A program made the translations under genes and the position numbers. Positions 1 to 64,000 of a DNA stretch of 64,000 nucleotides are shown here, in pieces. How positions within the stretch are numbered: position 1 is the stretch's first letter; each line of letters begins with the position of its first letter. A model generated the notes under the pieces. It did not search any database. It was given only the letters and a program-made list of their open reading frames with translations, and was not told where the DNA came from. This DNA is from Cyanidioschyzon merolae (Eukaryota), in the NCBI GenBank assembly GCA_000091205.1, contig AP006493.2, one strand, 5' to 3'.

Positions 1-116
1 TGGAACTTGGAGGTAGAGTGCAGGACAATGGACGCATTTTCGATTACCAAGATACCCATCTATCAAGCAATCTGGGATCTATGGTCAATGGAACCGTGTT
101 GTGTCATCAGAAAAAA

Positions 117-262: not shown

Positions 263-3200
263 ATGACCTGCAATTGGCAGCTAGCTCACGTACTCTGGCG
301 TCAAGAGCATCTTCGTTCCATGAAGGTTATCTGCACTGTCGCAAAAAAAGAATTATCTGCCACATTCAAGCGACCTTCGAACGGGTACGAGCTGTCGTTC
401 GCGCTACCCAGGCCCCGTCCGCCGCAAAAGCACTGCGGGCCCACAGCTCGTCGAACTGCAGCTGCTGCTTCGCGGCGTGAAGTCTCCTGTCCAACTACCC
501 CGAGCCGATGCCGTTGGAGCGTGCGGACACACAACCTGTCCGCCTGGAACGCCCGAACAGGAACTGACCTCAGCGGGGCGGCGGTGGTGCCTTCGCTGCA
601 GGCCGCCTCTCAACCAGCATTGGTGTCGGCGCGGTTGGCGCGCTGCGCACCTGCAACTTGCAACGCCGGGCACGGCATAAGCAGCCGCAGAGAACGACGC
701 CGAGTGAGTGATTTCTTCGGCTACATCCCGTTGGGAAGTTTCGAGGGACCCGGGAGGCTGTTAACAATCTTCGAGAGTGCGGAAGTGAGCTTAGTGAAGG
801 AGATGCCCCCTCTGCACCGAAAGCAGTCCCGTCGCGTTGTATGTGTTGCGGACACGAGCAGTGATGACAGTTCGTCATCGGCAATGGCTTCAGAAGCCTC
901 AAAGTTCCCTGGCCCCGATAAGTTTCAAAACGCAGCGCTTACACGCACATCCGAGAATGAGTTGGACGCAAATCAGCCTGGAACTGGCACGCTCGACAGT
1001 GTTGAAGAAACTCCAGTCTACGGAGCGCCAACCACGGACGCTTCGAGCGACGGTTTATCTCCAAGAACGCCTAGGAAACCTTCGGGTACATCTTCATCGT
1101 TGGATCGGGAAGAGGGAGACGCTGGTGGCTCCGAGTTGTTCGGAACCGGACGATTGCGACCAACAGCCTCGGAACAGGTAGCGGAGGTCAAGAGCGATGT
1201 CTCGCCGGCGGACGCGGACAGCAACCACCGGCTCGCATCAACGCTCCAGACCGCTCAGCTTGGTTCAAGCGAAGCGAAGCCGCCCAAGAAACGAGCCCGC
1301 AAAGGAGAGCGCGCCAAACGCACGCTCAGCACCAAGGCGAACGGCGACTCGGATGACGAGGATCGACAGACAGGACTATACGGTGCCCTGGCGGCAGACG
1401 ATTACCTGAAGCTGTTTGAGCCCTGTTGGGAGCCCGGCCAACCCGTCCCATATAGTTTTCTTGCGAATGCGTTTGAAACAATGGCGGGAACAAGCGGACG
1501 CATCGACCTGACCCGCCAACTTGCCTGTGTTCTGTTCCATGTACTGAATCGAACGCCGGTGGATCTATTGCCGACCATTTACCTAGTCATTAACCGGCTA
1601 GCACCAGCGCATGAAGGTCTTGAAATCGGCGTTGGAGACGCTCTGTTGTTGCAAGCGCTTGCCGATGCCACAGGGCGGAGTCTCAGCAAACTCAGAGAAG
1701 ACTATCACCGGACAGGCGACCTGGGAGATGTCGCCGTCCATTCGCGAACGACGCAGCGCACCATGTTCGCCGTGCCTCGCCTGACGATTCGCAATGTCTA
1801 CAATGAGTTGCTGGCCATTGCACGCGCTTCCGGTAAGGCAATGCAGGAAGAAAAACGTCGCCGTATTCAGAAGCTCCTCGTCGCTGCAAAGAATAATGAA
1901 GCGAAGTTTATTGCCAGGGCACTACAAGGAAGATTGCGTATTCGGCTTGCGGAGAAAACCGTTATTCTGGCACTTGCGGCCGCATTTGTACAGAATGCGG
2001 CAGCGAGTCGTGGTACGCACCCGGATGCGGCACGCGTCGAACGGGCTGCGCACCTACTGCGAACATCATCCAATGAATGCCCGTCATGGAATATGATTAC
2101 TGAGGCATTGCTCGAGTTGCAAGATATCGATGAGCGGCTTCTCGAGCGATGTCATTTGACACCAGGCCTCCCAGTGATGCCCATGCTTGCCAAACCCAGT
2201 AGGTCTATAGCGGAAGTCCTCACTCGGTTCGAAGGGATGCGCTTTACCTGCGAATACAAGTATGATGGCGAGCGAGCCCAGATCCACGGCCTCGCAGATG
2301 GATCCATCCGCATATACTCACGGAATGCTGAAGATCATACGCGCAAATATCCGGACGTCATGGAGCAGATACTACAGGCGGTTGGCTCGTCATCCGATCA
2401 GCCTTCTTTTATTCTGGATTCGGAGGTGGTAGCCTTTGATCGAGACGCCCAACGCATTCTACCTTTCCAGTACATTCAGCAGCGCGCGCGCAAACACGTC
2501 TCGCTGGACGACCTCAAAACGAACGTTCTCATCGTGGCGTTCGATATCCTATACTGGAGAGGAGAGCCCCTGACTCGCAAGCCATTGGCAGAACGGCGAG
2601 CGATCCTGCGGGATGCCTTTCAAGAGGTGCCGGGTGGTTTTCGCTTTGCGACGCGACGCGATGTAAGCGACCTGGACGGTATTCAAAAGTTCATGGAGGA
2701 GGCTGTGCGTGATTCGTGTGAGGGCCTCATGGTGAAAGCGCTTGAAGGTCCTCTTTCGACTTATGAACCGGCGAATAGAACACAGCACTGGCTCAAGCTC
2801 AAGAAGGACTACCTCCGGACAATCGGCGATACACTGGATCTGGTTCCGATTGGTGCGTATTACGGTCGCGGCAAGCGAACCGGCTGGTTCGGCTCGTTTT
2901 TGCTCGCCTGCTATAATCCAGAGACGGAACAGTTCGAGGCAGTAACACGAGTCGGCACGGGCTTTTCGGAAGAGCAGATGGCCCAGCTCCACTCGGAGTA
3001 TGCGCAGTACGTGCTGGATAGCCCACGGCCGTATGTGGCCTGCAGCGAGTCCGTGAAACCGGACATTTGGTTGGATCCCCGCCAGGTTTGGGAGGTTCAG
3101 TGCGCTGATTTGAGCATCTCGCCCGCTTACGTGGCAGCCTGTGGGTACATTGCCCCAGACAAGGGCATCTCGGTTCGCTTTCCTCGTCTGCTACGAATCC

Positions 3201-4330: not shown

Positions 4331-7300
4331 TGCAGGACGTGAAGTTGACTGTTAGTTGATACGAACGGTGATGACGGGATATGCGTGGACAGAAAGAAAC
4401 ACGCTTCCAGTCGAGACCGTTCCGCACTGAACGATACACCATCGATTTCGAACGAAAACGCGAACGCCTGGCACAGCGGGGTCTGGTGTGCTTTCCACTG
4501 AACGACACCTGATTCGGGAGACGCTCTCTACATGAATACGGGTACTCAAGGAGCGGCAGGCTGCTGTTTAAAAACGAGAGACAGGTGAGTATGACGACAG
4601 CTTCGGTATTAGCAGCGAATCAATCATGTGGTCGCCTGTTGATCGTTAACCAGATAGGAGCGTTGCACACCGCATGCTTCATGGAAATTTTCATCGTAAA
4701 TGCTTCTTTCCCGCATTCTTCTATTCTGTTCTTGTTCAGCGCTATATATCATCACTCAAAAACGGTCGACAATTACGCGGCTTTGCGGGGCGTGTAGCAG
4801 CTGCTCGTGCTCGCCTTCTCTCAGCGGTTTATCAAAGTCGAGGGCCTCTTCTCCGTTGTCAAGCGCCATCTGCACGTTCACAAATCCATAGACGAGTCGT
4901 TTGCATCCATACATTGTTCTTCGACAAATCGGTACCTGCTACCGTCAGCATGCTTAAAACGCCGTGTTGCTCTTCGATCCGTACCTGGTAGGGAGCGAGA
5001 AGGCATGTCTCGGTCCGAGTACATGCATAGGATGCAGAGATTGACGAAATGATCGCCAAAGAAAAGTAGATACATTCAGAGAAAGGGCAGGTTCCGGTCT
5101 ATCCATCGATCTTGGGGATCTGAATCCGGCAACCAAATCGGGGATGGAGCCCAGCGACCACATCAATGCCACATCGCCGAGTAAAGGAGAAGCAAATGAA
5201 AGCACCGGGCAAAGAAGAGAAGGATTTTGCTGAATAGAGTACAAGATGGGACAGGAGGGGGAAAGTGTCTCAGCAGCGGGATCGGTAGGGAGCAATTGTA
5301 AAAAAGTGCATTTTCAAACGCTTCCGCGATGAGCATCTTCCATAGAGAATCAAGATTCAGGGCATCATTCGGGATCGTATAGCTTAGTGCTCGATACATG
5401 CTCGCTTGTCCTGCCTCGTTTGGACACATGTCGTCGAGCAACTGCTAGAAGGCGTTCCACGCGCACTACTCTCACGTATACGAATCGATACGGAATTTTT
5501 CAGTCAGGCCTTCGTGTGAAAACACCACCGATGCTCCGAAAAGCAGTTGCAATGAGTCCGGGTCGTAGGGGAAAGGATTTGTACGCGAATCCACGCTTTC
5601 CTGAACATATCAGATAACGCAAAATGTATCTTTGGCGGTCGGAACATTTCCAGCGCAGATACGAAAAACGTATCCAACCAGCCTCAAGAACGTAAAGCGA
5701 ATGCGAATCAATGCCAAGCGTTTGATGACGCGCAGTCTGCGGGCCATCCTTCCCTTGCCTCACATGCTCAGAAAATGGGACGAATGCAAAGCATTCCGGG
5801 GGTCTCGATGGTGACAAATGAGGATTTGGCGCTAGCTGATCAGCTGGACATGGTGGAGAGGGCGGAAGAGCTGTCAGAATGAGAAGGAACGTCGCTTCAG
5901 AGCGTTGAAGCTCATGATGTTGCTGTTGACCTCGGATCGACGACAGGCTGTATTCAAAGTGCGGCTGAAGCTTGATGCTTGGCCTTCCTGCATCTCGCGC
6001 TACTACGTTTCTGAGAACAGCGCCTTGCAGAGCAAAACAGACTACGTGTCCGTATACGAGCGCCCTGACCTCCTCAAGCGTCTATTCAATATTATTCCTA
6101 CGTGGAAAATGAGGGCCCAATATACCACAACAGAGACTTCTTTACTGTATTGCGTGGCCTTCGGTTTGAGTTACGGCTGGTTTCGAGGAGCGAACAACAT
6201 GCATTCGAACAACACCGCGAAGGCTTTTGGTGGAGATCGTTCAATAGTTTTCATTTACGAGGAGGAAATCGAAAGAAATGCGCAAGGACAATGAAGACCA
6301 ACAAAATATCACTCGGCGTGCTGTTCGCGAATGCCAGGCCTAGTTCGAATAACGAGACCCAGTTTCAACCTCTCGATGTAGATGAGGAGAAAGACTTCTT
6401 GGCGGACGTCGATACCCGGTTGAAAGGAAAAGATAGCCGTCATTGGACCTCTTCATCAAGACGATGGAGCAAATGAGCTGAACGCAGAGCACGTGAAGCC
6501 GTCCAAAATTTCCGCGGGGCTCAGTCTCATCAAGAGTTGGTCACGACGCAGGCCCGGACCGAAAACGGGAACTCGAATGACTGCGTCAGGATCCGTCGCG
6601 ATTCTCTGAGCACACTATCGAGCAGAGCAGGGACGATTTGTTCATTTCATGCTGAGAGGGACATCCATACTCCAAATGGCTCATGCGGGCAATCGTTTTC
6701 AAGAGAAAAAGAGATCACGCTGGGGTCACCAACGGTTTCGATTGCACGAAGGAGGGAGGCGTGCACTCACCAACTTGTTCTATGAGTTGGAAAGGGAAAT
6801 GAACGCAATTCGAGTCGTTCGGCGGAAGCCTATGGCGCTGGACATGCTGTAGCGTACAAATGCTGCACGTTTGCTTCTTCGATGAGAGTGTACAACAAGC
6901 GCAGTTGCCGATTCACCGCGATTCCCATCGATACATCGGGGACCATACACATGTATCCAAAGCACAGATGCACACTGACACCAACAGAGAACAAGAGCGT
7001 GAAACAGAGCCAGATGCTCGACTTGGTCAACGCGAAGTACATTGAACCTCACATCACGAGGCAAGACAGGGTCACAGGCTCGCCATGGACTGATTCCACC
7101 GGCAACCATGCGCCCAAGCAACATGCTCAACGCAACATAAACGTCTCATGCTCTCAGAGCAGCTACCAGCTGCGTGTCGAGGCAGCCTTAGAGCTTCCCT
7201 TTACCTACGCAGTGCGGGCATTGCGCTGAAATGCGGAAGACTTTCGAAAAAGCTCACCAGCTGGGAGTGAAGGAGTCGGATTCCCAGTCGGCGTAAAACA

Positions 7301-15260: not shown

Positions 15261-15849
15261 CAAAAGGGCAAAGAGGCCTTTCCGAATAGACGAAAGCAAG
15301 TCCTAAAACCAAGTCGGCATCCTTTAGCTGTTAGTGCTCCACCTCGACTGTCGTGGCTGCACATCTGCAAAATTTCTGTTATTCGAAACGCAGGAACAGA
15401 TTGAGCGGGTCAGTGCTCCGATTGAAGTCCACAGAGGTTTAACGTGGAAAGGCTGCTTGAATCGAATATCCCGGGGCCTTTTTTCGCAAATCCTTTTTTC
15501 ATGTACGCAAGTATCTTGGACGCACCCGTGTTCCAGCAGACCAGCGTCGCAGATGCAGTGGTTGTACTATTCGATAGGAACCAAGCAAGCGCAGGTACCA
15601 TATTCCATAATTGTTTCCTCGGTTCGGGTATCAAGGCCCCTGAGGCCATTTGCAAGGGTTCTGATCTTTGCCAGACAAAACCTTCTATGCCCGCTTGCAG
15701 CGGATACCGTACCTCGGCAGCGCGACGCTCCGGACAGCGCGTCGACTGCATATGTCTTACAGAGACAAGGCCGTCTCGCCACAGTGCTGCGGGTGTCAGT
15801 TGTGGGCCACTAGCCGGCAACGGGGCACGTACGTGTTCGCCTTCCAATT

Positions 15850-16125
15850 TTCTCCGTTGACAAAACGTTTCCTTCGGCCAGCGTTCTCAGATTACGCGCA
15901 TTTTTTTTCTTGGTTCTTTATGTTTTTTTTTCAGTGCACGGTGCAGTATACATCAAACGCCCTACTTCTAAGTTACATTAGCTATACTTCTTCTCTGATA
16001 TTCTGGTCGTTTCATATGTCCTATCATGTGTGCCTTGTGCCTCCCGAAAGCGACAGCAATGGCGCCTATAGCGCCGGTGCGGTCGCTGCACTTAGACAGA
16101 ACGGCGTTGCCGCACCATACAGAGG
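15850..16125. repeat. Dispersed repeat family D, copy 1 (~280 bp SINE/MITE-like element; other copies ~41535-41805 and, inverted, ~62560-62815)
   Basis: The shared core is 'gacaaaacg...attacgcgcatttttttt...cagtgcacggtgcagtatacatcaaacgccctacttctaagttacattagctatacttcttctc(t/g)gatattctggtcgtt...gcgcctatagcgccggtgcggtc'. The three copies are about 80-85% identical, and the third is in reverse orientation. Confidence 0.7.
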
Positions 16126-16623
16126 GCGTCGGCTCGAGGGTTCGCCTTCCAATGCCCTGCGTGTGGCTCCAGGTTGGAATCCTGCACGCTATGGTAACGC
16201 TCTGCACAGGAGCTCCATAAATGTGCTATCTTGTACATATATAGGTAGTTTCAAGCCAGTGCATGATGCAGATGCCATGGACATACACCGCGCTGCGGTG
16301 TCGGCGCTTTGCGGACACCAGCGGTTCGCGCCAGATTGCAACAGTTGATTTCCCTTCGTTAAGTAAGGGAATTGCCTTATGCGCAGCGTAGATATTTTCG
16401 CCGCCGTTGGCGCACGACGGGCACACGAGACCCTATCCATCTCCCCGCAGAGATTGAGGATTATCGGAGAGGCCTCTCCAGACGTTTTGGATTCTGTTAA
16501 ACAACGAAGCGGCTTGAGCTGCTGGAGCGCTTACTCAACTGACTATTGGTTACTTTCTGGTTAAGTTTGGGTATTATTTAACTTATCTGTGGGAGCAAAC
16601 AAGAGACACGAGTTGCGCGTCGC

Positions 16624-29242: not shown

Positions 29243-31299
29243 GAGTCTAGCGCACTCTTTGTAGCGTGCTCAAACTCCATAGAGCCTGGCTGTTTCAAGA
29301 GCGTCGGCGAGTTCGTATTGGAGCTGCTTCAGGCAACGGAAGCAGGAGCGAATCTATTCTCGCACAGTGCAAAGTGCCGCTTTGTGAGAAGCGTACGAGA
29401 GAATCGTCGACGCTGTGCGCGGTGGGCGCCACTGGATAGGGCGAACAGATGATTTGGTCTTGTCAGAGGCAGTTCTCGAACGTCAAGATCGTCGTCACTG
29501 ATGTAGACGAGCAATATCCCGACAGATACAATACCAGCGCAAGACGATGATGTCTAGTGGGAGACGATATCGGGTGACGTCATCATAAACTTGTTTAAAA
29601 GAGGTTGTCGTGCACGAAGCGTTGTTCATACAGCATCTGTGCGAGACGTCCTACTGTGGCGCTCTGCAGAGCACAGGTGCACTTGTACCGTCGTTGTGTT
29701 TCCAGCAGCGAATTCCGGAGCACTTGTGCCAGCACACTCGTTTTACTTCTTGTTCAGTTCTCCTACCGACATTCAAGAGAAGGAATGTCTCCGATAGATT
29801 GGAGAGAGGTCACGGAAGGATTTGATGCTGTTCGAGTTTGCTTGGGAGAAACGATCACCTCTGTTCAAGTCGGTTATTCTACGTACAACGCATGGTTCCA
29901 TTACCATTCATGAAGTTCTTATGCTGAACCGCGTATGCCCGAGTCAGAACCTATCAAAGACCGTCGACATGGCTGTCTTGTGGTCAATATAATTCGCCGC
30001 ATGCGTTCACTAAGAAATACGATCAAAGAAGGCACAGGATGTGAAGTTTCCGTTCCGTTGATGCAAACGTCGATGAAGAGCCGCGGGTTGTCGACGAATC
30101 AAGCACGATTGTATGAAATACCGTCGCGCGTTGAACAGTACTCTGTCGATCTCGTCATGAGACAGGAACGCTTATTACAGAAGGAACAGCTTCCGTTTCA
30201 CTCGATGGGACTTTATCCAGAAGAAATGGTAGACATGGACATGGGTACTCAAAGAGCGGCAGCACGCTGCTCGAAGAGACGAGGCAATCGAGGATTCCGA
30301 CGACATCTGCACGAGCTGCGATGCGATCGTGTGGTCGCCTCCAAGTCGCCAAAAGAACAGGATTGATCGAGGCCTTGTCGTTCCTCGAAGAACTCCTCGT
30401 GGCATGCCCTTCCCATATTCTTCCGTCTAGCGCTTAGACATCGTCGCGTTCCATCACTAAAAAACGATAAGAGAGCAAGCGACTGAGATTGACGCTGAGC
30501 TGCGCTTTTTGCTAGTTTATGTTCCCTGGTTTATTCGAGTCGGAGCTTGTTTTAGGTTGCCATTCACCATTTCATGATCATTTTTTGATAACACCTCTAC
30601 GCAGACCAGGGACCGTCGACTGCGCTTTTGATGGCAAAGCGCTGTGAGGCATGCTCACTTGCAACTAGCTTCAGATTCCACCGCCCATACGTGCCCTCGG
30701 AGCATCTAGTTATGCTCCGCGTCCTATCATGCACCTTGCCTGCGGCGAGCGTCCGCAACAGCGCCCACTGCGCCACTGCGGATGCAACACGAAGATAGAA
30801 CGCCTTTGCCATACCACGAAGGGCGTCGACTCGAGTTTTTACGCTCATGGTCGATTAGAAAAGTCGTTCGCATTTGTGACATGGCTCTTCGACAACTCGT
30901 TTCTAAACAATAAAATCGTTCAGTTTTGCTACCAGTGTGCTGCTCTATCGCTCCTTTGTCCGTTACGGGATAGGGCGGAAAGCCACGCTTCAGTACAGGG
31001 GCCTCCTCGCGATGCAGAAGATACAGAAAATATGCGTTAGGGAGCGAAGATCCATGCATAGAAAAGGCGAGTTTTCTTGCCACCGTCCACCGACGTTCGC
31101 CTGAATCACTAGGAAAAACAGTACCTCGTATAGCGACCGTGTTCATGGCATCCTGCTGAGTCAATGAAAAGGCGATAGAGCTGGCCTCTGCGAGCAAGTA
31201 TGAAGCACTCGAGCAAGTTGTGAAGAGCAGTTGTGGCGTTCGTTCAAGTTTCTCACTTATTTTGTATGAACCGATCAACAGGACCTGTTTTCAAACGCT

Positions 31300-31560
31300 C
31301 AAGGCAATGGAGAGAAGGATTTCGTCGTGAGCATGGATCCCCGTTTGATTGATACCGTGGCAGTTGCCGTCCTTCGAGATCAAGAAGACGGAGTCGCCGG
31401 CCTGAACGGGATGCAGATGAAGCCACTGGAGTTTCCCAAGGCCGGGGATCATCGGGATTCGCGCATCGCCGACTCTATGAAGCATATCCAAACGTCGAAT
31501 GAGGGCGTCAGACCCATGTCGACGCTCCCAACACGATATAGACCAACGGGACACGCTCTG
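31300..31560. repeat. Dispersed repeat family C, copy 1 (inverted copy at ~48410-48650)
   Basis: The spurious ORF peptides LRDQEDGVAGLNGMQMKPL and LSQEDGAKDLNRMQMNPL share about 75% nucleotide identity over >200 bp in opposite orientations. Confidence 0.55.
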
Positions 31561-32940
31561 TACGATTCAGAGAGTACGCAAGGGTCCAAAAGCTTCAAGC
31601 GGCCTATCTTTGGCAGGAATGTATCAGAACGTGCTGGGGTTGACAGCGGTTTCGGTCGCGCGTACACAAGAAGCAAGGTGATCGACGACTTGTTTTGCGG
31701 GCTGGATGAGAATATGGCCGAGAATCCGGATCGCTTTGTGGTAGCGTCTGGAGCTGAATGTGCCGCATCCGGCAAATTCTGGCCACTTGCTCTTTCTCGA
31801 AGTGAGTGTAGAAACGTTCTGGTGCCTATGCCGTACAGTTCCCATTGATTAGTCCAAGACGAGATACACGCATCTTGAGCACGTGTCCATTCTGAAACTG
31901 GTAGAAAAGATGAGAATGAAACAGCGACGGATGCACGAGATGATGCAAGGTAAACCCACCGAACGTCATTTAAAGAGACAATGGAAGCCAGGAGGCTCAC
32001 AACGGTATATACAATCACCAAAAAGAAACACGAGCACTTTCTGCACCAAGAGATGAACGTCTTGATCAACATCCGCAAATTTCTGTTGCCTCCGGAGTGT
32101 CCAGCGGTTTCGTATCTCGCACGAAGTCTCTCACAACTCATTTATTATGCTGTGTGCCTCCATGGTGCTGAAATGCTGCAGACTCGTGATGGAAAGAAAC
32201 CGCACGCCAGGAGAAAGTGGATTTGAATGACCCTGGACAAAGGCACTTGTTTGGTACGATTCACGAATCCCGAACGGCTTACGCGCTGGGATGTACAGAC
32301 AGGGAACGATCCTCGTAAGCATTTTTTCAGAAGATAACGGGATTTTGCTACGCGACGTTACTATGGATATCGCCATCGGAGAGCAGCCTGCGAGAAACGG
32401 AACACCGGACGGGTAGTGTCAAGGCTCCCGACGCGAACAGCCTCTGACGTCCGAACAGACGCCTTCTGAGATCGAGGCCTGGCGTCGGACCGAGTGCATC
32501 GCCAACGAGTACCTGGTCGTCACCCGCAAGTGAGGGCATCGAATACCACTATGGATCTCAGTGTTTAGATTGGTAGTCTGCTGGCCTACCGAGCGTTTTC
32601 AGTAGCGCTCGAATTTGCACCCGGAGGAGCTCACAAGCTGAACCACTGCCAGAGCGTCACTGCGGCAAGCACGGCCACTGACGGGTCGAGCGCACGCGTG
32701 CAGCTTGCTCTCACAGGCAAGCGACTGCTCCTTTTCTACAAACATTACACTCGGTTTGAATTTTAAGCGGGAGAGAAGAGCTTTGAGAGCGAAGACGTGC
32801 AAGCTGTAGCCGCTGGAGCAGCTGCATATCCGAGCGTTACGCTTTCCGTGGGCACTGCAGAAGCAGGCGCCCTTGCCAAGCGTCGATGCCGGCGCTCAGC
32901 GCTTCGAGCGCTAGCATTATCACCTTCCAGAAGCAAAACT

Positions 32941-41534: not shown

Positions 41535-41805
41535 ATTCTTTTTCATGGACAAAACGTGTCCATGGGCCAGCGGTCTCCGATTGTGCGCTTTTTCCTTTCT
41601 TTTCTTTTTTGTCAGCGTGCGGTGAAGTATCCATCAAACCGCCTGCTTCCAAGTTACATTATCCATACTTCTTCTCGGATATTCTGGTCGTTTGGTTCGT
41701 TCTATTGTGTGCCGAGCGCCTGCTTTGTTGGCCCGCAATGCCGCCTATAGCGCCGGTGCGGTCTCTGCGCCGAGGCAGAACACGGCGTTGCCGTACCACA
41801 CAGAG
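41535..41805. repeat. Dispersed repeat family D, copy 2 (directly abutting repeat A copy 2)
   Basis: See copy 1; it aligns to ~15850-16125 at about 85% identity in the same orientation. Confidence 0.7.
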
Positions 41806-41979
41806 GACATCGGTTCGGAAGCAGTCGGTCAATGCGTGACGCTTTCGGGTCGTGTGCAAGCAACGAGCGCACCTGCGCTCTTTGGAGCGCATGCTTGCTG
41901 CCTGGTGCGGGATTCAAGGATCGATGGATTCGAGGCAGCACCCGACTCGAATACGCTGGACAAAGGTTGGATGTATGGA

Positions 41980-43304: not shown

Positions 43305-44854
43305 CGTCAATGGTATTATGACTTGCATGTATGCGTGCATGCAAATAGTCTGATACCAGAGAAGCCGCCATCTTCTCTCTCTAAGTGCGACGACGCTCCG
43401 CTCATTTCTAGAGCAGAATACCCGTCAGGAATGGATGCTCGACCGATCTCGCGATAATCCAGGTGCTGCACCTCTGTCGGGCTCACGCATATGCTTCTAA
43501 TGCAGGCACAGGGCAGCGACTGAAGCGCTTCGCCAGACGCTGGTTGTGCGCTTGCCAGGTCACGCACACTCGTCTCATACGGTGCGAACTCCATGCATTC
43601 ATCGAGCTTTCCCCGGTGTACCCAAATGCTGCTGGTGGCCACACAAGAGACCTCGGGTTCACCATGAGCGTTTCAACGTGTCTCGCACTCCATACTGGTG
43701 CTCTCCTCGGAATTCGAGCTGAGATGTATCCTGTGAGGATTCAGTTGCGGCACCTTACGCGACCACCGATGAATACCTGGTGCTTGCGTAATGCCGTGTG
43801 CGGGCGCTGACACGAACTGCAGTATGCTTCTGTGCGAGGCCAGCATGTGCCGTATTCCTGGAATCCAACAGGATGCGTAGCCAGGATACACTCATGTGCT
43901 ATGCTTTCGTGCCGAAAAGCTTCCCATCGTATATGTGTACCGCTCGCAGTGCCGATCACAAGCGCAGTGCTGTGGCGACAAGGGATCAAACATCGTGCCG
44001 TACTGTCGCGGTTTCGCCTCTGATGTGAACGGCGTTTCCGACTCAACGAGCCGCCGCCAGTCTCCCGTGAGCCGCTGCCTTTCTTCATGCGGTCGAGAGC
44101 CAGTCGCGATCAAGGCTCTTTGCGTACATCGAGGCAATGCCTGATTCTTTTGCAAAAATGCAGTGTGTCGATGACATGCTGGGGCTTCCAACCGCCACCT
44201 ACCGCGTCGGTGTCTGAGTATGTATGTGGTCAGTGATGCAGAAAACGCTCTGCGACACTAGAGCGTAATGATACATACACTTACAGACGCCTCCAGTCCT
44301 TCTTTGACCCGCTGACTGCTATAGATTTTGTTTTATCCAGGCAGAGAACGACCCTGAGAGGCTGCCACACCAAGTCGCATAGCGACAGCTTCCCGGTTCT
44401 CGCCTCGAGCAGTACACTTTACATGATATGGATGGCGGCGTTGATGTCCCGGTTCACGTACTCCTTGCGTTTATTGCCTGGAGTGGAACTCGCCTTTGCA
44501 AGGATTGTTTGACCTCGTGCACTCTGCGCCACTACAAGCTCATCATTATCCTGCCGTGCTGGCACCGTTTCTCGCCTATCTCCTCTCTCTTTTTCTTCGT
44601 CTCCTTCGCTCGATCATCGGTGAGAAGAGGATTTTTCCGTTTTTGTCGAACCCGGCGATGACGGGCATCTAGGATCTTCCACTTCTATGCCCATCGCTTT
44701 CCCTTAGACTTTATATTTCTTCAAATGAACGTACATCGAACCCATCTACTATAAACCGTGAAAAAGCAGTTGGTTACTGTATTCTAGAGGTGGAACACCA
44801 TTGCGTTGAAAGACTAAACGTTAGCCGTCAGGCACTTTCAGTTGAGCGCGCGCG

Positions 44855-47095: not shown

Positions 47096-48409
47096 TTGAT
47101 CGAGCTGCTTCGGGGTGTGGGTGCGGGTCCCGATGCATTGTACGCATCATGAAAACGCATCCAGACGCTCTGCACTGAGATGGAACCAGAGTCGCACGTC
47201 GCAAGGCATCGAAGGGCGTACCAGACGCTGGCGACGCTGGTGAACGTTGCCGACGCTGTCACGTGCGCTGGGCGCCAGGAGACTGCGTTTGCGCTATTCG
47301 GTATCGACAGCGGTCGTCTGCAGCGCTCAGCACCCCAAAACGTCAATACAGCAGGCGTTTAGGATCTTGAGTTGCTTAGTAGATGGTACTGATTGTGAGG
47401 TGGCGGTGTCCGCGGGTGCGTTTACAACCGCGGCTCCGTGCACGCATCCTCGTGGCTGAGTTTACGTGCCGTTTCTATATGTGCAGTACGCGCGTCGCAA
47501 ATATCCCGGCTGCGGTCATTGCATACTCATGGATATCGTGTCTGGGAGCAGCACGGGCAGCTACCAAATGCCGAAGAAAACTACTTCCATTGTGTAAACA
47601 TGTATATGTGTGTATGCGGCGCTCCAGTGTGTCAGAAATGCTGACCGTTCCACACCAGTTGCTTCGTCGAGGCGGGAATCCAGTCACGTTTCTCCTGGTC
47701 GCTGCTTTCGTTCCTTCCGAAAAGTTGCAATGTTTCCGCACAATGCCTTCGCCGAGTACGAAACGATTCCCATGGAATTCCGCTCGATAGAAAGCCGTTG
47801 GACGCTCAGAAAGCATGCCGCATATCAGGGTATTGACCGAGACGGTCAAGTGCCGTTGCAAAAAGTGTTTGCGGGCGTTGCTGCAGGTGGAATCACGCGA
47901 GAACAAGCCTCTCAACTTCGACTGACTTGCCGTCTGATATTCGATCGGCTCCATGTGCGCGCTTCAGTGCATGTGGCTCTGATACACGCTCTTGGTCTCA
48001 AGCTGTCCTCCCAAGAACACTTGCTCGTGATGCGCGTATACCCTCTTGAACGCATCGATGGGAATCGTGTAGAATCGATTCCTGCACTCCCTGTCTGCTC
48101 AAGGCGACGCCCTGGGATTGCGGTATTCGCACGTCAATGCACATTCACGGCCATAGGCTATCAAGAATCGATGCGACTTGTCGGTCACTTCCTTTTCTGA
48201 CTCTTTGAATACGTTTGCGAATGTATGCCCCTTGCCTCTGTGCAAGAAAAACAGCGGCGACTTTTACGCTATCTCATGTGCTCCTGTCAGGTGTCGTCCG
48301 CATGGACGATTTGGACGCTCATCTAATTTCTGCATGAATCACAAAAACATCCACATTTTCTCGATAGGTTGCAAAACGCATCGAGATGAATCATGACGCC
48401 GTCATCGCC

Positions 48410-48650
48410 TTTGTTGGTATACCCGCGTTGCGCCGATCATGTCCGACTCTGTTGGTACTACCGAGCCCTGACAAAGCTGAGCGGATTCATCTGCATTCTG
48501 TTCAGGTCCTTGGCGCCGTCCTCTTGACTCAGCGGCCTGGCGACGGCCAGATGCCCCGCAACCCGAAATCCGCACCCCACTACGAAATCGTTCACTGCAT
48601 CCACCAGGAGTCGTTGAAAAAAAATCACCGCGCACTGAGCAGACGTACAG
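48410..48650. repeat. Dispersed repeat family C, copy 2 (inverted relative to copy 1)
   Basis: See copy 1 at ~31300-31560. Confidence 0.55.
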
Positions 48651-53299: not shown

Positions 53300-54500
53300 T
53301 GTTTACTGAATGGCGCAAGCAGGACTGTATTTCTACCTCAGGTCAGTCATAACTCAGTGCGCAGATGTTTGGTGAACACTAAAAGAAGCAAGTACTGGCG
53401 CTCCGCGCCGCACACGAACACTCTTGAAGACTGCTTGCGATCAACGGTAGAAATCAACACGTTGATCAGCTTACGGAAGGCAAAAGCGATGCTTGTAGTC
53501 GCCACGGGCGTCTCTCCTTCTAGTCAGCTTGTTCGTATTTTCCTAGAAACTCTGGGATCCATTCGCCAAGGAAAGAGTCATTGTTCACGAACGGCTCTTT
53601 TCCACCGAAATCGCAACGAAAGCGTTCCTGGAATGCCGCGATGATTATAAAATACAGGAACGTCAGTTTGTTTTTTAGTCGATGTGACTTGCCTCGGATG
53701 AAACAGTCCTTGCGTATATCGATATTCGCGGAGCAGGGCCCCCATGCTACGTACTATCGAACTCGTAGAGAACGGGGAAATCATGTGTTCCCGCTGCATT
53801 GGATTCATTTGGCGGCCGCAATTACGCTCACGGAAAAAGCCTATAGAACAACACCAAGCACTTCGTCGAATCATGGAATACTTTTCCCATGATGTCTGGC
53901 GACGTCCTTCTAGTGGCCAACATGGTATTTCACGATCCCTGTTGCGTTCGAGCTTTTGCCGATTCTATCTTGGAAAAGAGCTACTTTTCATCCCGGCGTA
54001 CTTTTCGAGCTTGAACCGTATCTGAAGGGGTGTATTCTCTCGAGAACCGTAACGATTGCCCCAGGAGGCGAATCGTTCAAGCGCTCAGCACACGGTTATA
54101 CCGGGACGCATGTCGTCTTTCTTCCGCAAATCCCTCTTCCTCCAGAAAGGCCCTCACCTAAGGGTATAAAGAAGTGCGTTGCGATTAGAAAAATTAAGGC
54201 ATGAGCTCGATTATACGCTTCAGAAAGTCGAGATACGGAGAAGGCGAAGAAGGGCCCGGTAGATAAAAAATGCATATCGCAGACAGAGCGATAAATAGCA
54301 GAGAGGGCACGAGTTCGAGGAATCCTCGCACTTTCAGCTCAAACAGAGGCACAGAACGCATGGCATTCATGAACCGAGACTTTAACGCCGCCATCAGTAT
54401 CAGGAGTTGCGCAAGGCTGAAGAAGAGGCCCCAGGAGCTGAAGCTGTCTAACTTTGTGATGCAGCCTCTTCGACTCTCGAAGTTGACAAAGAGAAGCTGA
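53300..54500 (+). pseudogene. Degraded, frameshifted TnpB/Fanzor-like RuvC nuclease gene relic (copy 1)
   Basis: Successive + strand ORF fragments are 53186..53644, 53581..53892, 53956..54204 and 54270..54500. They give ...RRCLVNTKRSKYWRS...LRKAKAMLVVATGVSPSS (RuvC-II-like block), ...RTVTIAPGGESFKRS (resembles the x-Y-T-S-Q-x-C segment that precedes the zinc finger), and MAFMNRDFNAAISIRS (resembles the RuvC-III R-D-x-N-A-A-x-N-I motif of TnpB/Cas12/Fanzor). The zinc-finger cysteines are not preserved and there are multiple frameshifts. Confidence 0.4.
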
Positions 54501-54799
54501 AGCCGATGGCGGGCGGCCGGTCCAAAAACGCTGGGAGGCGTCTGCGTATGGGTATTCATTTACCCTCCAAGGTCGTAGTACATTTAATGTTTCACGGACA
54601 TGTGCAGTTTCCGTCCGTGCTGCAGACTGGTGCAGCTTCCCGCCACCTGCCCCATGCTGGAAAGCATTCGTTACGCTGCGACGCGCCAGCCGCGCAGCGT
54701 CGCCGGATATTCCAGAGCCGCCGCGACCTCGCGCTTGAGAGCGCACGTTCCGTTAGAAACGGGGTTTTTCGTTTTGGAGCGGGTGCAGAGGCCGTAGTC

Positions 54800-60421: not shown

Positions 60422-62559
60422 TAGAAGCTGGGCCTTTTCAGGACAACGCCTCGCCCCCGGCTATTGACCGCTGGGGGCGTAGATTGTATCGGTGAGCGTC
60501 GCCGCAGCCGCCGGCCTCACGATGGCATCCGACCGTCGCAGTCTTGGCATGATGCCTTGGAAAAGCGACCGCTGGCTGCTGTCTGCAGGACGAACAGACC
60601 AGCGCATTCTGACAGACGCTTCGACGTTGGAGACGCTTCAGTCACGAATTTTCCCTGGGAATAGAGGCTATGTGTCGAGCAATCGCCAGTGTACCGAGTC
60701 GGCCTTGCGCGCTGCGCCCGTGTCAGGGATGCATGGAACACCGAAATGCATGCGCTGTTCCCGCCTTGCGATTCATTATACGAACGATTGTCGAAATGCA
60801 CCGTCGGTATTCCGTGATACAGCAACAAGGGCTTATGGAACGATACGTAGGTTTGGGAATTTGAGTCTTTTTTGTCCGAGCGGCTTCTTCGACTCGTTGG
60901 GGCTGAAATGCGTTACGTCACCGAAATAAAAGGGATTCGCGGCGCATTCGAAAGAACGTTCGTAAATAATCAATACCGATATTCATTTCTCTATGTGGAA
61001 TTCTCTACATTTCTGCTCTTTTCACGTCTGGCATGCCCAAATGACGCATGCGTACGCTGTTTGATCTTTCTTTTTCGAAGCATCTCGTTGATGCAGCAAC
61101 GTGCACCGCTAGATTGTTAACGAAAGAAACTTGACTTCGTTTCCTGGCGGCTTGTCCACAAAATCGATGCAGTAGCTTCACTGAATTCGTCACGAAATAA
61201 ACATCGATTTCGTTCGAAAGACGAGGTCTCCACTATTTCTGACCATCCACCAAGGACATTCGATAGCAGGAGCATGATACCTCTCGAGGCACGTGCACGC
61301 AGAGGCTGCCTTGTTTTCTGTTTTCACGGAAACTTGTCCTGGACTTGGACTTGAATGATCACAGCGATCACTTTCAGTGGAGCATATATGACTAGTCTGT
61401 ACTACGTGAGCCTAGACATATCAAATTCTCTCGACTTGGTCCCCTTCATGGATTTTAGCCTCTGGTACATGTTTCGTCATGGGTGACATCGGGTTTCACA
61501 TATTCTTGTCTATTCGTAAAAACAGCAGGGAACAGAAGGCGGATCAAGTTATGCATTTGAAGAAACGCTTCATCGTTCATTCCGTCTAAGACCGTCTTCT
61601 CGACCGTGAAGAACAGGCTCAGGGAAGCAAAACCAATATTTGGACAACTCAGATTGTCCTTGAAACGAACATGTGGAAAGTGCTTCCGGTGCGTAAACTT
61701 ACCACTAAACAGCGAGGATGGGGAAGAACAACAGAACGGACCGCTAGTTGGTGACTTGTTCATCGATGCTGTCCATCGCCCGCAGCACGAGATAAAACGG
61801 GGCATCATTCACGTCTATTCGGAAGTTCACTTGAGCGGTATAAGATCCCGCGCGCCGAGATTGAGATCTTTTCAGAGAAAAATGTACCCGCCAACCCGAG
61901 CGACGAATCCAACCGCATGCCAGATGCGGCAATGACAGGAACGTCCGGTTCCCTTCTGCTCTGCATAGCATTGCGATCCTGGGAGCCGAATGGCGATACA
62001 AGCGCGCTCCATCGGGCGCCATTGACGGGTACTAACCTACAAGTCACTTGCAGCCTTTCGAGAAAAGATAACGAATTATCAGTACATTAACGAAGAAGGG
62101 ACACCAATAGAGGACTCTACAATAGCGAAAGAGGCCCAACGGGATACAGAAGAAAAGACACAATGGCATCATGATCCACATGCCAGAAGAGTAACCAGAG
62201 AAAGTAGCTCAGGAAAGAGCCCGAAGAAGAAGAAGACCAACAAGAGAAAACAGAAGAATAGAGAGAAGAACTCCCAAACGGGCCCATCACAAGTGATCCC
62301 CAGAAAGAGCACCCAAGTGGGAACTCAAGAAAGCTGCCACCAAACCCAGTCACCTACTCACAGCGCTGTAGATCCGAAAAGCCGTGCATACAAATCTTTA
62401 GACCAATTGGCACGCGAGTTTGTAGCTGGGAATCAGAAGATCGCCAGAGAACTGGGACGGCTGGCACCAGAACGCAACAGTTGCAAAGCGCAGAACCTGA
62501 AACGACGTACCAAAACTCGGATTGATGGATGCTACCGACTCAACAAGATCGTCAACCGC

Positions 62560-62815
62560 ACCGCCATACGTGCCAACGCCGGAGACAAGGAAGCGAAGGC
62601 AGCGCTACCGGCGCTATTGCGGGCGATCAGGGCAGGCGCTCGGTGCACGATTTTACGTATGAAACGACCAGAATATCCGAGAAGAAGTATGGGTAATGTA
62701 ACTTGGAGGTGGGCGGTTTGATGGATACTTCACCGCACACTAACAAAAAAGAAAAGAAAAATGCGCATAATCGGAGAACGATGGCCTAAGTAAACGTTTT
62801 GTCAATGAAAACAAA
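62560..62815. repeat. Dispersed repeat family D, copy 3 (inverted), adjacent to the second Fanzor-like relic
   Basis: The reverse complement aligns to copies 1 and 2 ('...gaaaagaaaaatgcgcataatcggagaacg...' against the rc of 'cgttctcagattacgcgcatttttttt'). ORF 62293..62721 ends ...MKRPEYPRRSMGNVT, and ORF 15968..16207(-) has ...MKRPEYQRRSIANVT. Confidence 0.65.
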
Positions 62816-63037
62816 ATCGCAATACCCAAGCGTGCGGAAGATGGTAACGACTGTAACTTACGTCAGAAGGACATGCGTCTGTTGAGGTCCTGGAGAGCAA
62901 GATACTATCGAGAATCGGGAATAATGAATGCGAGGACAAAAATCGAGATATGGAATGCAGGAATGAAGGATCACCCCTGGAAGCTAGGAGCGAGGTGACG
63001 AGCCTAGGAGCGGACCTTCAAGCTTTTCGGAAGTTTC

Positions 63038-63580
63038 ATGGAAGTTAGCGTTGTTCATTGGGAGGCGCTGTGGAATGAATATACAAAGCCCCGGTGGGCT
63101 CGTCTGCGTATGAATCTATATTGTGGGAAGCGGCGTGCATTTGACAACTTTTTTAGTTCGTTGAGCGCCTTGAAGGAGAATGAAAATCAGAGGCTCGTAA
63201 TTGCGTATGGAGCAGGGCGCTGGAAGACCCAATAAGGGATTACGCCAGCTCCAACGATGAGAACGTACACGGAGTGTGCACGTCGTTTTGTTACGATACC
63301 TGTAGAAGAGTTCCGAACGTCCTAGACACACCATAATCTGGGGTGTACGCTCCAGCGGGTTGAGATGAAAAAGCGCCAGCGGAGCTCTGAGGATATAAAA
63401 AAGTACGGAGCACTGACGGAAGAGCAAATGGAAAGGAAAGCGAAATTTCGAGGATTGCTTGCATGAGTAAGTACAACGAATGATGGCAAGAAACGTATGG
63501 AGTTTGTGAACCGGGACTTGAATGCCGCGATCAGTGTGCGGAGATATGCGTTGATGGAGACGAGGTCTACAGAGTAGACA
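63038..63580 (+). pseudogene. Degraded, frameshifted TnpB/Fanzor-like RuvC nuclease gene relic (copy 2)
   Basis: ORF 63038..63235 gives RWARLRMNLYCGKRRAFDNFFSSLSALKENENQRLVIAYGAGRWKTQ (RuvC-II-like region; compare TnpB R..kR.D.lHK.s...vi.iEdL and Fanzor vIaiGDw). A shifted frame gives ...TMRTYTECARRFVTIPVEEFRTS (like G..VV.V.E.YTSQ). A further shifted frame at ~63497 gives MEFVNRDLNAAISVRRYAL (RuvC-III-like). It is about 75% identical to the relic at 53300-54500. Confidence 0.4.
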
Positions 63581-64000
63581 AGAGTGAATTTTCTTGGACA
63601 ACCACGCAAAGTGGATTTATATTGGAAAAAGTTGGAAGTATTAGATGGCCGCTCGAGAACACCTGGAAGGCACCTGCACGTCAGCTGTAGACGTCTTGTC
63701 TAGGGCGGTTTACTCGCCACTACTGTGCACTGCCGGCGGCATCGTTTTTCTTTTCAAGGGCGTTCGGTTTCGGAGGTGATGAACTTTTCGTGTTCCGGAA
63801 CAAAAGCACTAAAACGTTGCCGTTCCCGGAGCTGGGGTATTTGCTTAGTCGTTTTCAACTTTTCCGTGTAGACGACTGAGGTATTACGCGTTATACTGGG
63901 CTGCAGAGGGGAGCACAAAAGCTCCGCAAGCAAACTCGAAGGTATTTTAGGTAGCCTGATCGAAACGCAGAAGCGCTGGTCCGTAACTTCCCGGGTACGA

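Follow-up and report, generated by a model that had tools for sequence, protein, structure and literature searches.

Our analyses of a 64,000-nt stretch of DNA from Cyanidioschyzon merolae (hereafter the window, the positions of which are used for all coordinates) indicate that the segment 62816–63762, on the plus strand, is a dead, 5'-truncated copy of the Fanzor1 element CMe-1A, and that the locus in which it lies is the junction of two truncated elements rather than a single composite one, a reading to which we assign a probability of about 95%. The relic is already known as a kind, as the element family to which it belongs was described in the C. merolae genome, with a consensus and a protein, in 2013. 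In that study (Bao & Jurka 2013, Mob DNA 4:12; PMC3627910), CMe-1A was reported to have about 150 genomic copies, each of them ~80% identical to a consensus of ~3 kb; no terminal inverted repeats (TIRs) were present and the target-site duplications were left undetermined (PMC3627910). The first 635 bp of the element were found to be 95% identical to a second repeat, TE-N2_CMe, with ~70 copies, and the 3169-bp CMe-1A consensus and the CMe-1 protein of 734 amino acids (aa) are both given in the supplement of the paper (PMC3627910).

The published CMe-1A consensus accounts for both the nuclease-relic repeats and the short "family-D" repeats of the window, and the locus should be masked as two pieces, viz. 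a CMe-1A (Fanzor1) copy that is truncated and, beside it, part of a second element in the opposite orientation. Several results weigh against parts of this reading. A CxxC...CxxC zinc finger is absent from the CMe-1 consensus between the RuvC-II and RuvC-III motifs, and with this CCCC finger missing even the intact CMe-1 proteins are to be regarded as putative nucleases. At the 3' end of the element, where the guide RNA (omegaRNA) would be encoded, the pairing and the covariation of the predicted base pairs in 55 copies are not above those of shuffled controls (69/500 and 142/500), and a search of Rfam returned nothing credible and no family match. Lastly, the route by which the family-D repeat came to abut an internal position (2223) of CMe-1A may have been a nested insertion, a deletion or other rearrangements, all of which are possible.

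Extent, identity and decay of the copy

The CMe-1A consensus and the window align by blastn from consensus position 2223 to position 3169, the last published base, with 85.0% nucleotide identity over 951 columns corresponding to 62816–63762. The coding part of this copy, a Fanzor1 pseudogene at 62816–63703 (plus strand), covers residues 440–734 of the 734-aa CMe-1 protein (tblastn, E = 4e-136, 73.5% identity) and comprises what remains of the RuvC domain, a degenerate zinc-ribbon/TNB region and the C-terminal tail; once its frameshifts are corrected, the translation shares 78.6% of 295 residues with CMe-1. An earlier reading made from the letters of the window (the sequence-only reading) had recognised here a degraded TnpB/Fanzor-like gene from a multi-copy element family. 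The core of this proposal is supported, the family being the published Fanzor1 element CMe-1A, although the extent proposed for the relic (63038–63580) was too short, the homologous stretch being 62816–63762; upstream of the proposed start, from 62816, the frame reads ...IAIPKRAEDGNDCNLRQKDMRLLR... The three motif blocks on which the proposal was based (viz. RLVIAYGAGRWKTQ at 63191–63232, RFVTIPVEEFRTS at 63284–63322, and MEFVNRDLNAAISVRR at 63497–63544) are indeed collinear and in one frame, with stops interrupting it, and their origin by chance is excluded by the tblastn match to CMe-1 together with 204 protein matches. These matches were obtained when the conceptual translation of the relic was compared with 5.8 billion proteins (E <= 1e-3, best E = 5.8e-97, identity 60–81%), and none of them carries a Pfam annotation.

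The relic and CMe-1A share the same genome and sequence family, and the divergence of the relic is near the published figure of ~80%. The two differ in that the relic is inactivated, that positions 1–2222 of the element are missing from it, and that directly upstream of it stands the 5' module of CMe-1A itself, reversed with respect to the canonical arrangement. The layout of a complete CMe-1A (viz. a 5' 635-bp TE-N2_CMe-like module, a 734-aa open reading frame (ORF), and the 3' end) is thus not found at this locus, which has in the canonical orientation only the 3' 947 bp of CMe-1A, the fragment of the 5' module being inverted. This truncation of the copy leaves its assignment to the CMe-1A family unaffected. 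For a wider comparison, 80 related loci were taken from hot-spring metagenomes, out of more than 370 related stretches, and the relic is 75–83% identical (mean 79.8%) to 75 copies from these metagenomes. The unit repeated in the metagenomes is ~2.5 kb in length and has sharp ends, with a full element in locus L001; the window copy matches only its 3' 950 bp, and all of the metagenome locus copies align with the window only from ~62815 onward.

Insertions, deletions and stops of the relic were mapped against the consensus of the 75 metagenome copies. The N-terminal 60% of the protein is missing, including the RuvC-I aspartate, as the relic begins at codon 440, just past RuvC-I; the RuvC-I motif DPGNTN would lie just 5' of the breakpoint at 62816 and is absent from the window copy. 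Insertions of 2 bp near 62973 and of 1 bp near 63034 bound a frameshifted stretch of 60 bp (62973–63034, plus strand), within which the out-of-frame stops TGA (62996) and TAG (63005) fall. Four nonsense substitutions follow on the same strand: TAA at 63233–63235 (consensus AAA, Lys), TAG at 63323–63325 directly after RuvC-II (consensus TAT, Tyr), TGA at 63464–63466 (consensus TTA, Leu), and TAG at 63575–63577 (consensus TTG, Leu). A deletion of 3 bp lies at ~63636, and the native stop codon (TAG, 63701–63703) and the 3' tail are kept. The catalytic residues of the two remaining RuvC motifs are retained, viz. the glutamate (codon 63308–63310) of the RuvC-II motif VEEFRTS at 63302–63322 (VDEFRTS in the family) and the aspartate (codon 63515–63517) of the RuvC-III motif NRDLN at 63509–63523, both on the plus strand; the longer RuvC-III string reads NRDLNAA in the window and NRDFNAA in the family. 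Relative to the published CMe-1A consensus, transitions in the relic number 80 and transversions 59; G>A (28) and C>T (27) changes dominate, a spectrum that is typical of neutral decay. The relic is a dead, 5'-truncated pseudogene.

Placement of CMe-1 in Fanzor1 and the absent zinc finger

The relationship of the CMe-1 family to proteins of known structure is seen only when its diversity is included. Pfam and PDB searches with the conceptual translation of the relic alone gave no match, and a shallow family profile (A1) gave no match in the PDB, its AlphaFold2 (AF2) model being unusable at a predicted local distance difference test score (pLDDT) of 40. With a near full-length ORF rebuilt from the metagenome loci, relatives of as little as 21% identity were found, and two of them (P0214 and P0215) exceed the Pfam threshold for PF07282 (Cas12f1-like TNB / OrfB zinc ribbon), a threshold that the CMe-1 family itself does not reach (a weak signal in 7 of 25 members, with a best E of 0.067). 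The PDB and fold matches required a profile and an alignment that take in relatives of 22–41% identity, and the resulting family profile of 47 sequences (A2) matches the Fanzor1 proteins (Fz1) of Parasitella parasitica (9cf0, E = 5.1e-20), Spizellomyces punctatus (8gkh, E = 2.9e-15) and Guillardia theta (9cer, E = 1.2e-8), with the DPG, DE[FY]xTS and nRD motifs aligned in all three. An exhaustive profile search gave 1107 cluster representatives, most of them 580–700 aa in length.

The test of fold was made on P0121, a full-length relative of 752 aa, and not on the relic. Its AF2 model (pLDDT 77, predicted template modelling score (pTM) 0.70) matches the S. punctatus protein SpuFz (9cez) with a Foldseek E of 1.2e-16 and a template modelling score (TM) of 0.57 by query and 0.70 by target; its top PDB matches are SpuFz, PpFz (P. 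parasitica) and GtFz (G. theta), with Cas12, TnpB and Fanzor2 found weakly, at E > 0.006. In the 47-sequence alignment, residues D484, E656 and D725 of P0121 are nearly invariant, which confirms for the family the D/E/D RuvC triad that the sequence-only reading had looked to a consensus to provide. The RuvC-I aspartate (D484) sits in a DPG motif, GADPGNTN, and the RuvC-II glutamate in a shifted position just before [FY]xT[ST], as in VDEFRTS; such a shifted glutamate has been described for Fanzors (bioRxiv 10.1101/2023.08.09.552727). RuvC-II and RuvC-III of the relic and of the family align with DEFrTS/DEYkTS and with nRD of the solved Fanzor1 proteins. Membership of the CMe-1 family in Fanzor1 is firm, the homology in sequence and in fold being decisive.

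The solved Fanzor1 proteins, SpuFz1 (8GKH / 9CEU–9CEZ), PpFz (9CF0) and GtFz (9CER), are characterised omegaRNA-guided DNA endonucleases. The CMe-1 family resembles them in overall fold, in its WED, REC and RuvC domains, and in the DPG aspartate, the DE[FY]xTS glutamate and the nRD aspartate, although its sequence identity to them is only 12–15%. It differs from them in a variable tandem repeat of ~25 aa before RuvC-I and in having a helical insert, with no CCCC finger, between RuvC-II and RuvC-III. TnpB (IS200/IS605 and IS607; ISDra2, 8H1J) and Fanzor2 belong to the same superfamily, likewise encoded by mobile elements and with a split D-E-D RuvC, and for TnpB and Fanzor a guide RNA made from the right end of the element is established (PMC10432273); they are, however, far from the P0121 model (Foldseek E = 0.037 for TnpB 8H1J and 0.012 for Fanzor2 9B0L), and the protein encoded by CMe-1A is about double their size.

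A CCCC zinc finger is regarded as a hallmark of TnpB and Fanzors and has been described as conserved (Bao & Jurka, PMC3627910; PMC10432273; bioRxiv 10.1101/2023.08.09.552727). From RuvC-II to RuvC-III, the CMe-1 consensus reads VDEFRTS-YTHHELGCTLQRVEMEKCQ...RGLLALVSTT...NRD, the interval itself being SYTHHELGC...EKC...RGLLALVSTT, with two cysteines and no CxxC. Among the 77 full-length representatives found in the top 150 matches, none has four or more cysteines in this interval and 69 have at most two, and in the surrounding Fanzor1 clade a conserved RGLLWCxST motif stands in place of the second knuckle; the distant relatives P0214 and P0215 retain CxxC...CxxxxC. The finger-less set comprises proteins P0121–P0213 and P0222–P0364, and the interval concerned corresponds to 63323–63508 of the window. 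In the P0121 model, the region between RuvC-II and RuvC-III is predicted confidently (pLDDT ~85–90), with a helical insert.

We read the absence of the zinc finger as a clade-specific loss and not as a sign of non-membership, because the homology in sequence and fold to solved Fanzor1 proteins is decisive. The sequence-only reading had made the Fanzor assignment depend on a CxxC...CxxC finger in the consensus, a test that was mis-specified: the finger is absent and the assignment is not refuted by it. We tentatively suggest, at rather less than even odds, that CMe-1 forms part of a large and diverse Fanzor1 clade, with members of ~600–750 aa in many environmental eukaryotes, in which the finger has been lost and the D-E-D triad kept; a natural Fanzor lineage could then dispense with the zinc finger, provided that its proteins act as RNA-guided nucleases. 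No discussion of a finger-less Fanzor clade was found in the literature accessible to our search. The CMe-1 lineage and its environmental relatives, which lack the finger and yet look selectively maintained, are relevant to the mining of compact genome editors, for instance from thermo-acidophilic algae.

The ~25-aa tandem repeat (VTKHEEKKEADPxxQEVQDND) lies directly N-terminal of the RuvC-I DPG motif and was lost from the window copy by truncation. One unit is present in the published CMe-1 consensus and two to five in metagenome copies (L022, 2861–5194; L014, 831–3146; L023, 3560–5446), and the region (residues 376–471 of P0121) is predicted to be disordered.

The right end, the upstream junction and alternative explanations

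Downstream of the stop codon, 63704–63762 (plus strand) form the non-coding 3' tail and the element's right end, with a degraded terminal stem-loop (gcatcgtttttcttttcaagggcg). In 84 aligned ends, the right boundary is sharp and is marked by a terminal stem-loop of ~10 bp (63730–63762 in the window; 7335–7375 in L001), which occurs in two sequence variants, CGTCGTTCGA-CTT-TCGAACGGCG and AGCGTTTTTC-TTTT-GAAAGGCGTT. The Fanzor protein binds an omegaRNA that is transcribed from the right end of the transposon, sometimes overlapping the stop codon (PMC10432273), and cleaves guide-complementary DNA beside a target-adjacent motif (TAM), as shown for SpuFz1 and others (PMC10432273); by analogy, 63704–63762 would correspond to the omegaRNA-encoding end. 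The 3' 141 nt of the consensus fold better than shuffled sequences (z = -2.55), and a long-range stem of 9 bp (CAGTAGTGG/CCACTACTG) in the predicted fold brackets the stop codon. The 3' 156 nt of the window copy fold no better than shuffled sequences (z = +0.79), and this copy carries the 3-bp deletion and substitutions in both the long-range stem (AGCAGTAGT/ACTACTG) and the terminal hairpin. A claim of a demonstrated omegaRNA was dropped, as RNAalifold found essentially no consensus structure in 55 aligned 3' ends and the pair counts were no better than those of the shuffles.

Intact members of the family encode a protein of ~734–780 aa with the Fanzor1 architecture, viz. N-terminal WED and REC domains followed by a RuvC domain containing the DPG aspartate, the DEFxTS glutamate and the NRD aspartate. 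By homology with the characterised Fanzor1 proteins, an intact CMe-1 would bind an omegaRNA whose template lies at the 3' end of the gene and in the element's right end, and would then cut guide-matching DNA next to a short TAM motif, an activity that presumably favours persistence of the element. The window copy, which starts at codon 440 and in which four nonsense substitutions, two frameshifting insertions and the 3-bp deletion have accumulated, cannot act in this way.

Although the gene is dead, its right end could in principle persist as a ghost locus, supplying a guide that intact CMe-1 proteins use in trans. The native stop is kept, as is the right end as far as the consensus terminus, the 3' end of the consensus folds better than shuffled sequences, and ghost loci of the S. 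punctatus Fanzor with omegaRNA regions have been mentioned (PMC10432273); in the window copy, however, the advantage in folding is gone, both stems are damaged, and covariation supports no structure. It is unlikely that the window copy supplies an omegaRNA, and we regard the ghost-locus explanation as improbable.

Hairpins have a further aspect at the level of the element: the left boundary of the common core also holds a palindromic sequence, and hairpins at both ends without TIRs resemble the ends of HUH-type elements (IS200/IS605- or Helitron-like), with no such transposase seen. No transposase (TnpA) ORF is present in or near the element within the window.

Immediately upstream of the relic lies a family-D repeat, which corresponds to the 5'-terminal module of CMe-1A/TE-N2_CMe (consensus positions ~1–200). 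Blastn, global alignment and sharp boundaries place this copy at 62600–62812 on the minus strand, so that the inverted family-D copy reported at ~62560–62815 by the sequence-only reading is confirmed with slightly different limits. It is 83% identical to 41753–41540 and 76% identical to 16074–15857, both on the opposite strand, and 62713–62600 matches CMe-1A 84–195 at 82.5% (blastn). Global alignment shows that the 5' terminus of the CMe-1A consensus corresponds, as its reverse complement, to the right end of this D copy (GTAAACGTTTTGTCAATG followed by an A-rich tail), and this right end abuts the breakpoint at 62815/62816, i.e., the internal CMe-1A position 2223. At its other side, the D copy is truncated at ~62600, where it runs into a further repeat (E, 62063–62616, minus strand) that is 85–88% identical to metagenome segments in L039 (1865–1315), L070 (61–614), L009 (1–517) and L043 (1–497). 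In L039, E (1315–1865) and D (751–538) follow one another in the same order as in the window, upstream of a Fanzor core. The E repeat may represent a variant 5' region of the element, and 62063–62812 probably represents the 5' portion of a second element, which would lie on the minus strand and have such a variant 5' region. A fragment of this kind, from the same or a sister (TE-N2_CMe-like) element, may have been set beside the truncated plus-strand CMe-1A copy by nested insertion or rearrangement. The E repeat is also purine-rich on the plus strand, contains a 142-aa ORF (62293–62721) without a Pfam match, and is better conserved, in its identity to metagenome segments, than the Fanzor copies.

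The sequence-only reading had suggested that the Fanzor fragment and the inverted D copy form one composite transposon, in which D would be a terminal (inverted) repeat and the nuclease gene a cargo. One part of this suggestion stands, as the published CMe-1A consensus indeed has a D-like module at its 5' end; in addition, D-like sequence directly adjoins the 5' boundary of the Fanzor core in L067, L022, L063 and L059, and in L002 a D-like segment follows the right end at a distance of ~90 bp. At the present locus, however, D does not delimit the copy: it is oriented opposite to the canonical arrangement and is joined to the internal coding position 2223 and not to an end of the element, it is cut at 62600 and continues into E as in L039, which fits a separate minus-strand element, and no D copy is present in the 238 bp between the right end of the relic and the end of the window. 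Most D copies, moreover, are solo units of ~300 bp, and TIRs were not found in the published description (PMC3627910). Because D is inverted and abuts an internal breakpoint, we read it as part of a second truncated element and not as a terminal repeat, and consider a single composite transposon very unlikely.

A short overlap of ATCGC is present at the window junction and also where D abuts the Fanzor core in L067, L022, L063 and L059. A deletion between two ATCGC microhomologies within a D-Fanzor composite of the type seen in these four loci was considered and is unproven; against it, the window D is not specifically closest to those copies and the D of the published consensus is oppositely oriented.

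The two remaining alternatives concern the nature of the gene. A still-coding or domesticated short gene derived from the nuclease, such as the ATG-initiated 65-aa ORF at 63038–63235, is highly improbable, as this ORF ends at one of the nonsense substitutions relative to the family consensus and contains no catalytic residues, and as the six-frame list holds only short, chance-like ORFs and Pfam returned no match. An origin of the relic as a fragment of a prokaryotic TnpB/IS605 element, through horizontal transfer or contamination, to which the weak PF07282 signal might point, is effectively refuted by the best sequence and fold matches, all of which are to Fanzor1, and by the flanking genes, which are nuclear genes of C. 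merolae (four ORFs of the window are exactly the C. merolae 10D proteins BAM80589.1, BAM80590.1, BAM80594.1 and BAM80596.1); the size of ~734 aa is also that of Fanzor1, and the DPG motif and the DEFxTS glutamate are typical of Fanzors. Long ORFs free of introns and a G+C content of ~54% in the window likewise pointed to a compact eukaryote. The Replitron literature offered no classification relevant to red algae.

Other copies in the window and in hot-spring metagenomes

That the relic belongs to a multi-copy family, as claimed from the window alone, is borne out by six relics in the window, by the more than 370 related metagenome stretches, and by the ~150 genomic copies published previously (PMC3627910). 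The five other CMe-1-like relics, recognised by their similarity to the CMe-1 protein, are located at 6670–7154, 31312–32145 and 54200–54545 on the plus strand and at 44254–44822 and 47766–48592 (possibly to 49450) on the minus strand. They are 25–55% identical to CMe-1 at the protein level, are much more degraded, and lie between ordinary host genes; the relic at 44254–44822 looks internally deleted, with matches to CMe-1A 782–969 and 2889–2969. The identity of about 75% between the present relic and another relic of the window, as stated in the sequence-only reading, was not reproduced: direct alignment with four of the five gave 59–65% nucleotide identity over 51–237 columns, and only one stretch of 48 bp reaches 81%. 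A figure of ~75% fits instead the protein-level match of the relic to the family consensus and to copies in the databases (73.5–78.6%), and not its match to any other relic of the window.

Pairwise ratios of nonsynonymous to synonymous substitution rates (dN/dS) among the metagenome copies (L001–L082, 3' 295 codons) are ~0.26–0.28, in copies with intact and with broken frames alike, which indicates that most of the divergence accrued under purifying selection on the protein; this is in agreement with the remark of Bao and Jurka on long-lasting coding capacity (PMC3627910). Over these codons, only 4 of 76 copies are intact, yet full-length ORFs survive in the hot-spring populations, with 778 aa in L022 (from 2861) and 772 aa in L014 (from 831).

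In the metagenomes, one and the same core boundary (...ATCGCGCTCGGTGAGCGCACC), at CMe-1A position ~646, is preceded by any of at least four different repeated modules. The first is found in L038, L037, L066, L008, L019, L020 and L069, the second in L067, L022, L063 and L059, the third in L006, L039 and L077, and the fourth in L065, L051, L007, L042, L036, L035 and L003. The mobile unit may be the 2.5-kb core, which would then insert beside other repeats, or else the 5' region of the element is often exchanged.

Solo copies of D are present elsewhere in the window at 1–102 (minus strand) and at 15848–16145, 30720–30835 and 41535–41825 (plus strand), with matches to CMe-1A/TE-N2_CMe positions ~1–260; the parts of them aligned to the consensus (1–102, 15961–16139, 30720–30835 and 41642–41817) correspond to its positions 6–256. 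These units are ~260–300 bp in length, all end at about consensus position 256–260, and differ from the published sequence by a T/A-rich insert that varies, which suggests a sub-element of ~300 bp, shorter than the published 635-bp TE-N2_CMe. An identification of D with the full 635-bp TE-N2_CMe was ruled out, as the D units cover only consensus positions 1–260. The base composition of the last part of the window (62001–64000) is asymmetric, with a GC skew of +0.14, an AT skew of +0.22 and a G+C content of 0.49, and elsewhere in the window the skews are close to zero and the G+C content is ~0.54; this asymmetry coincides with the repeat mosaic.

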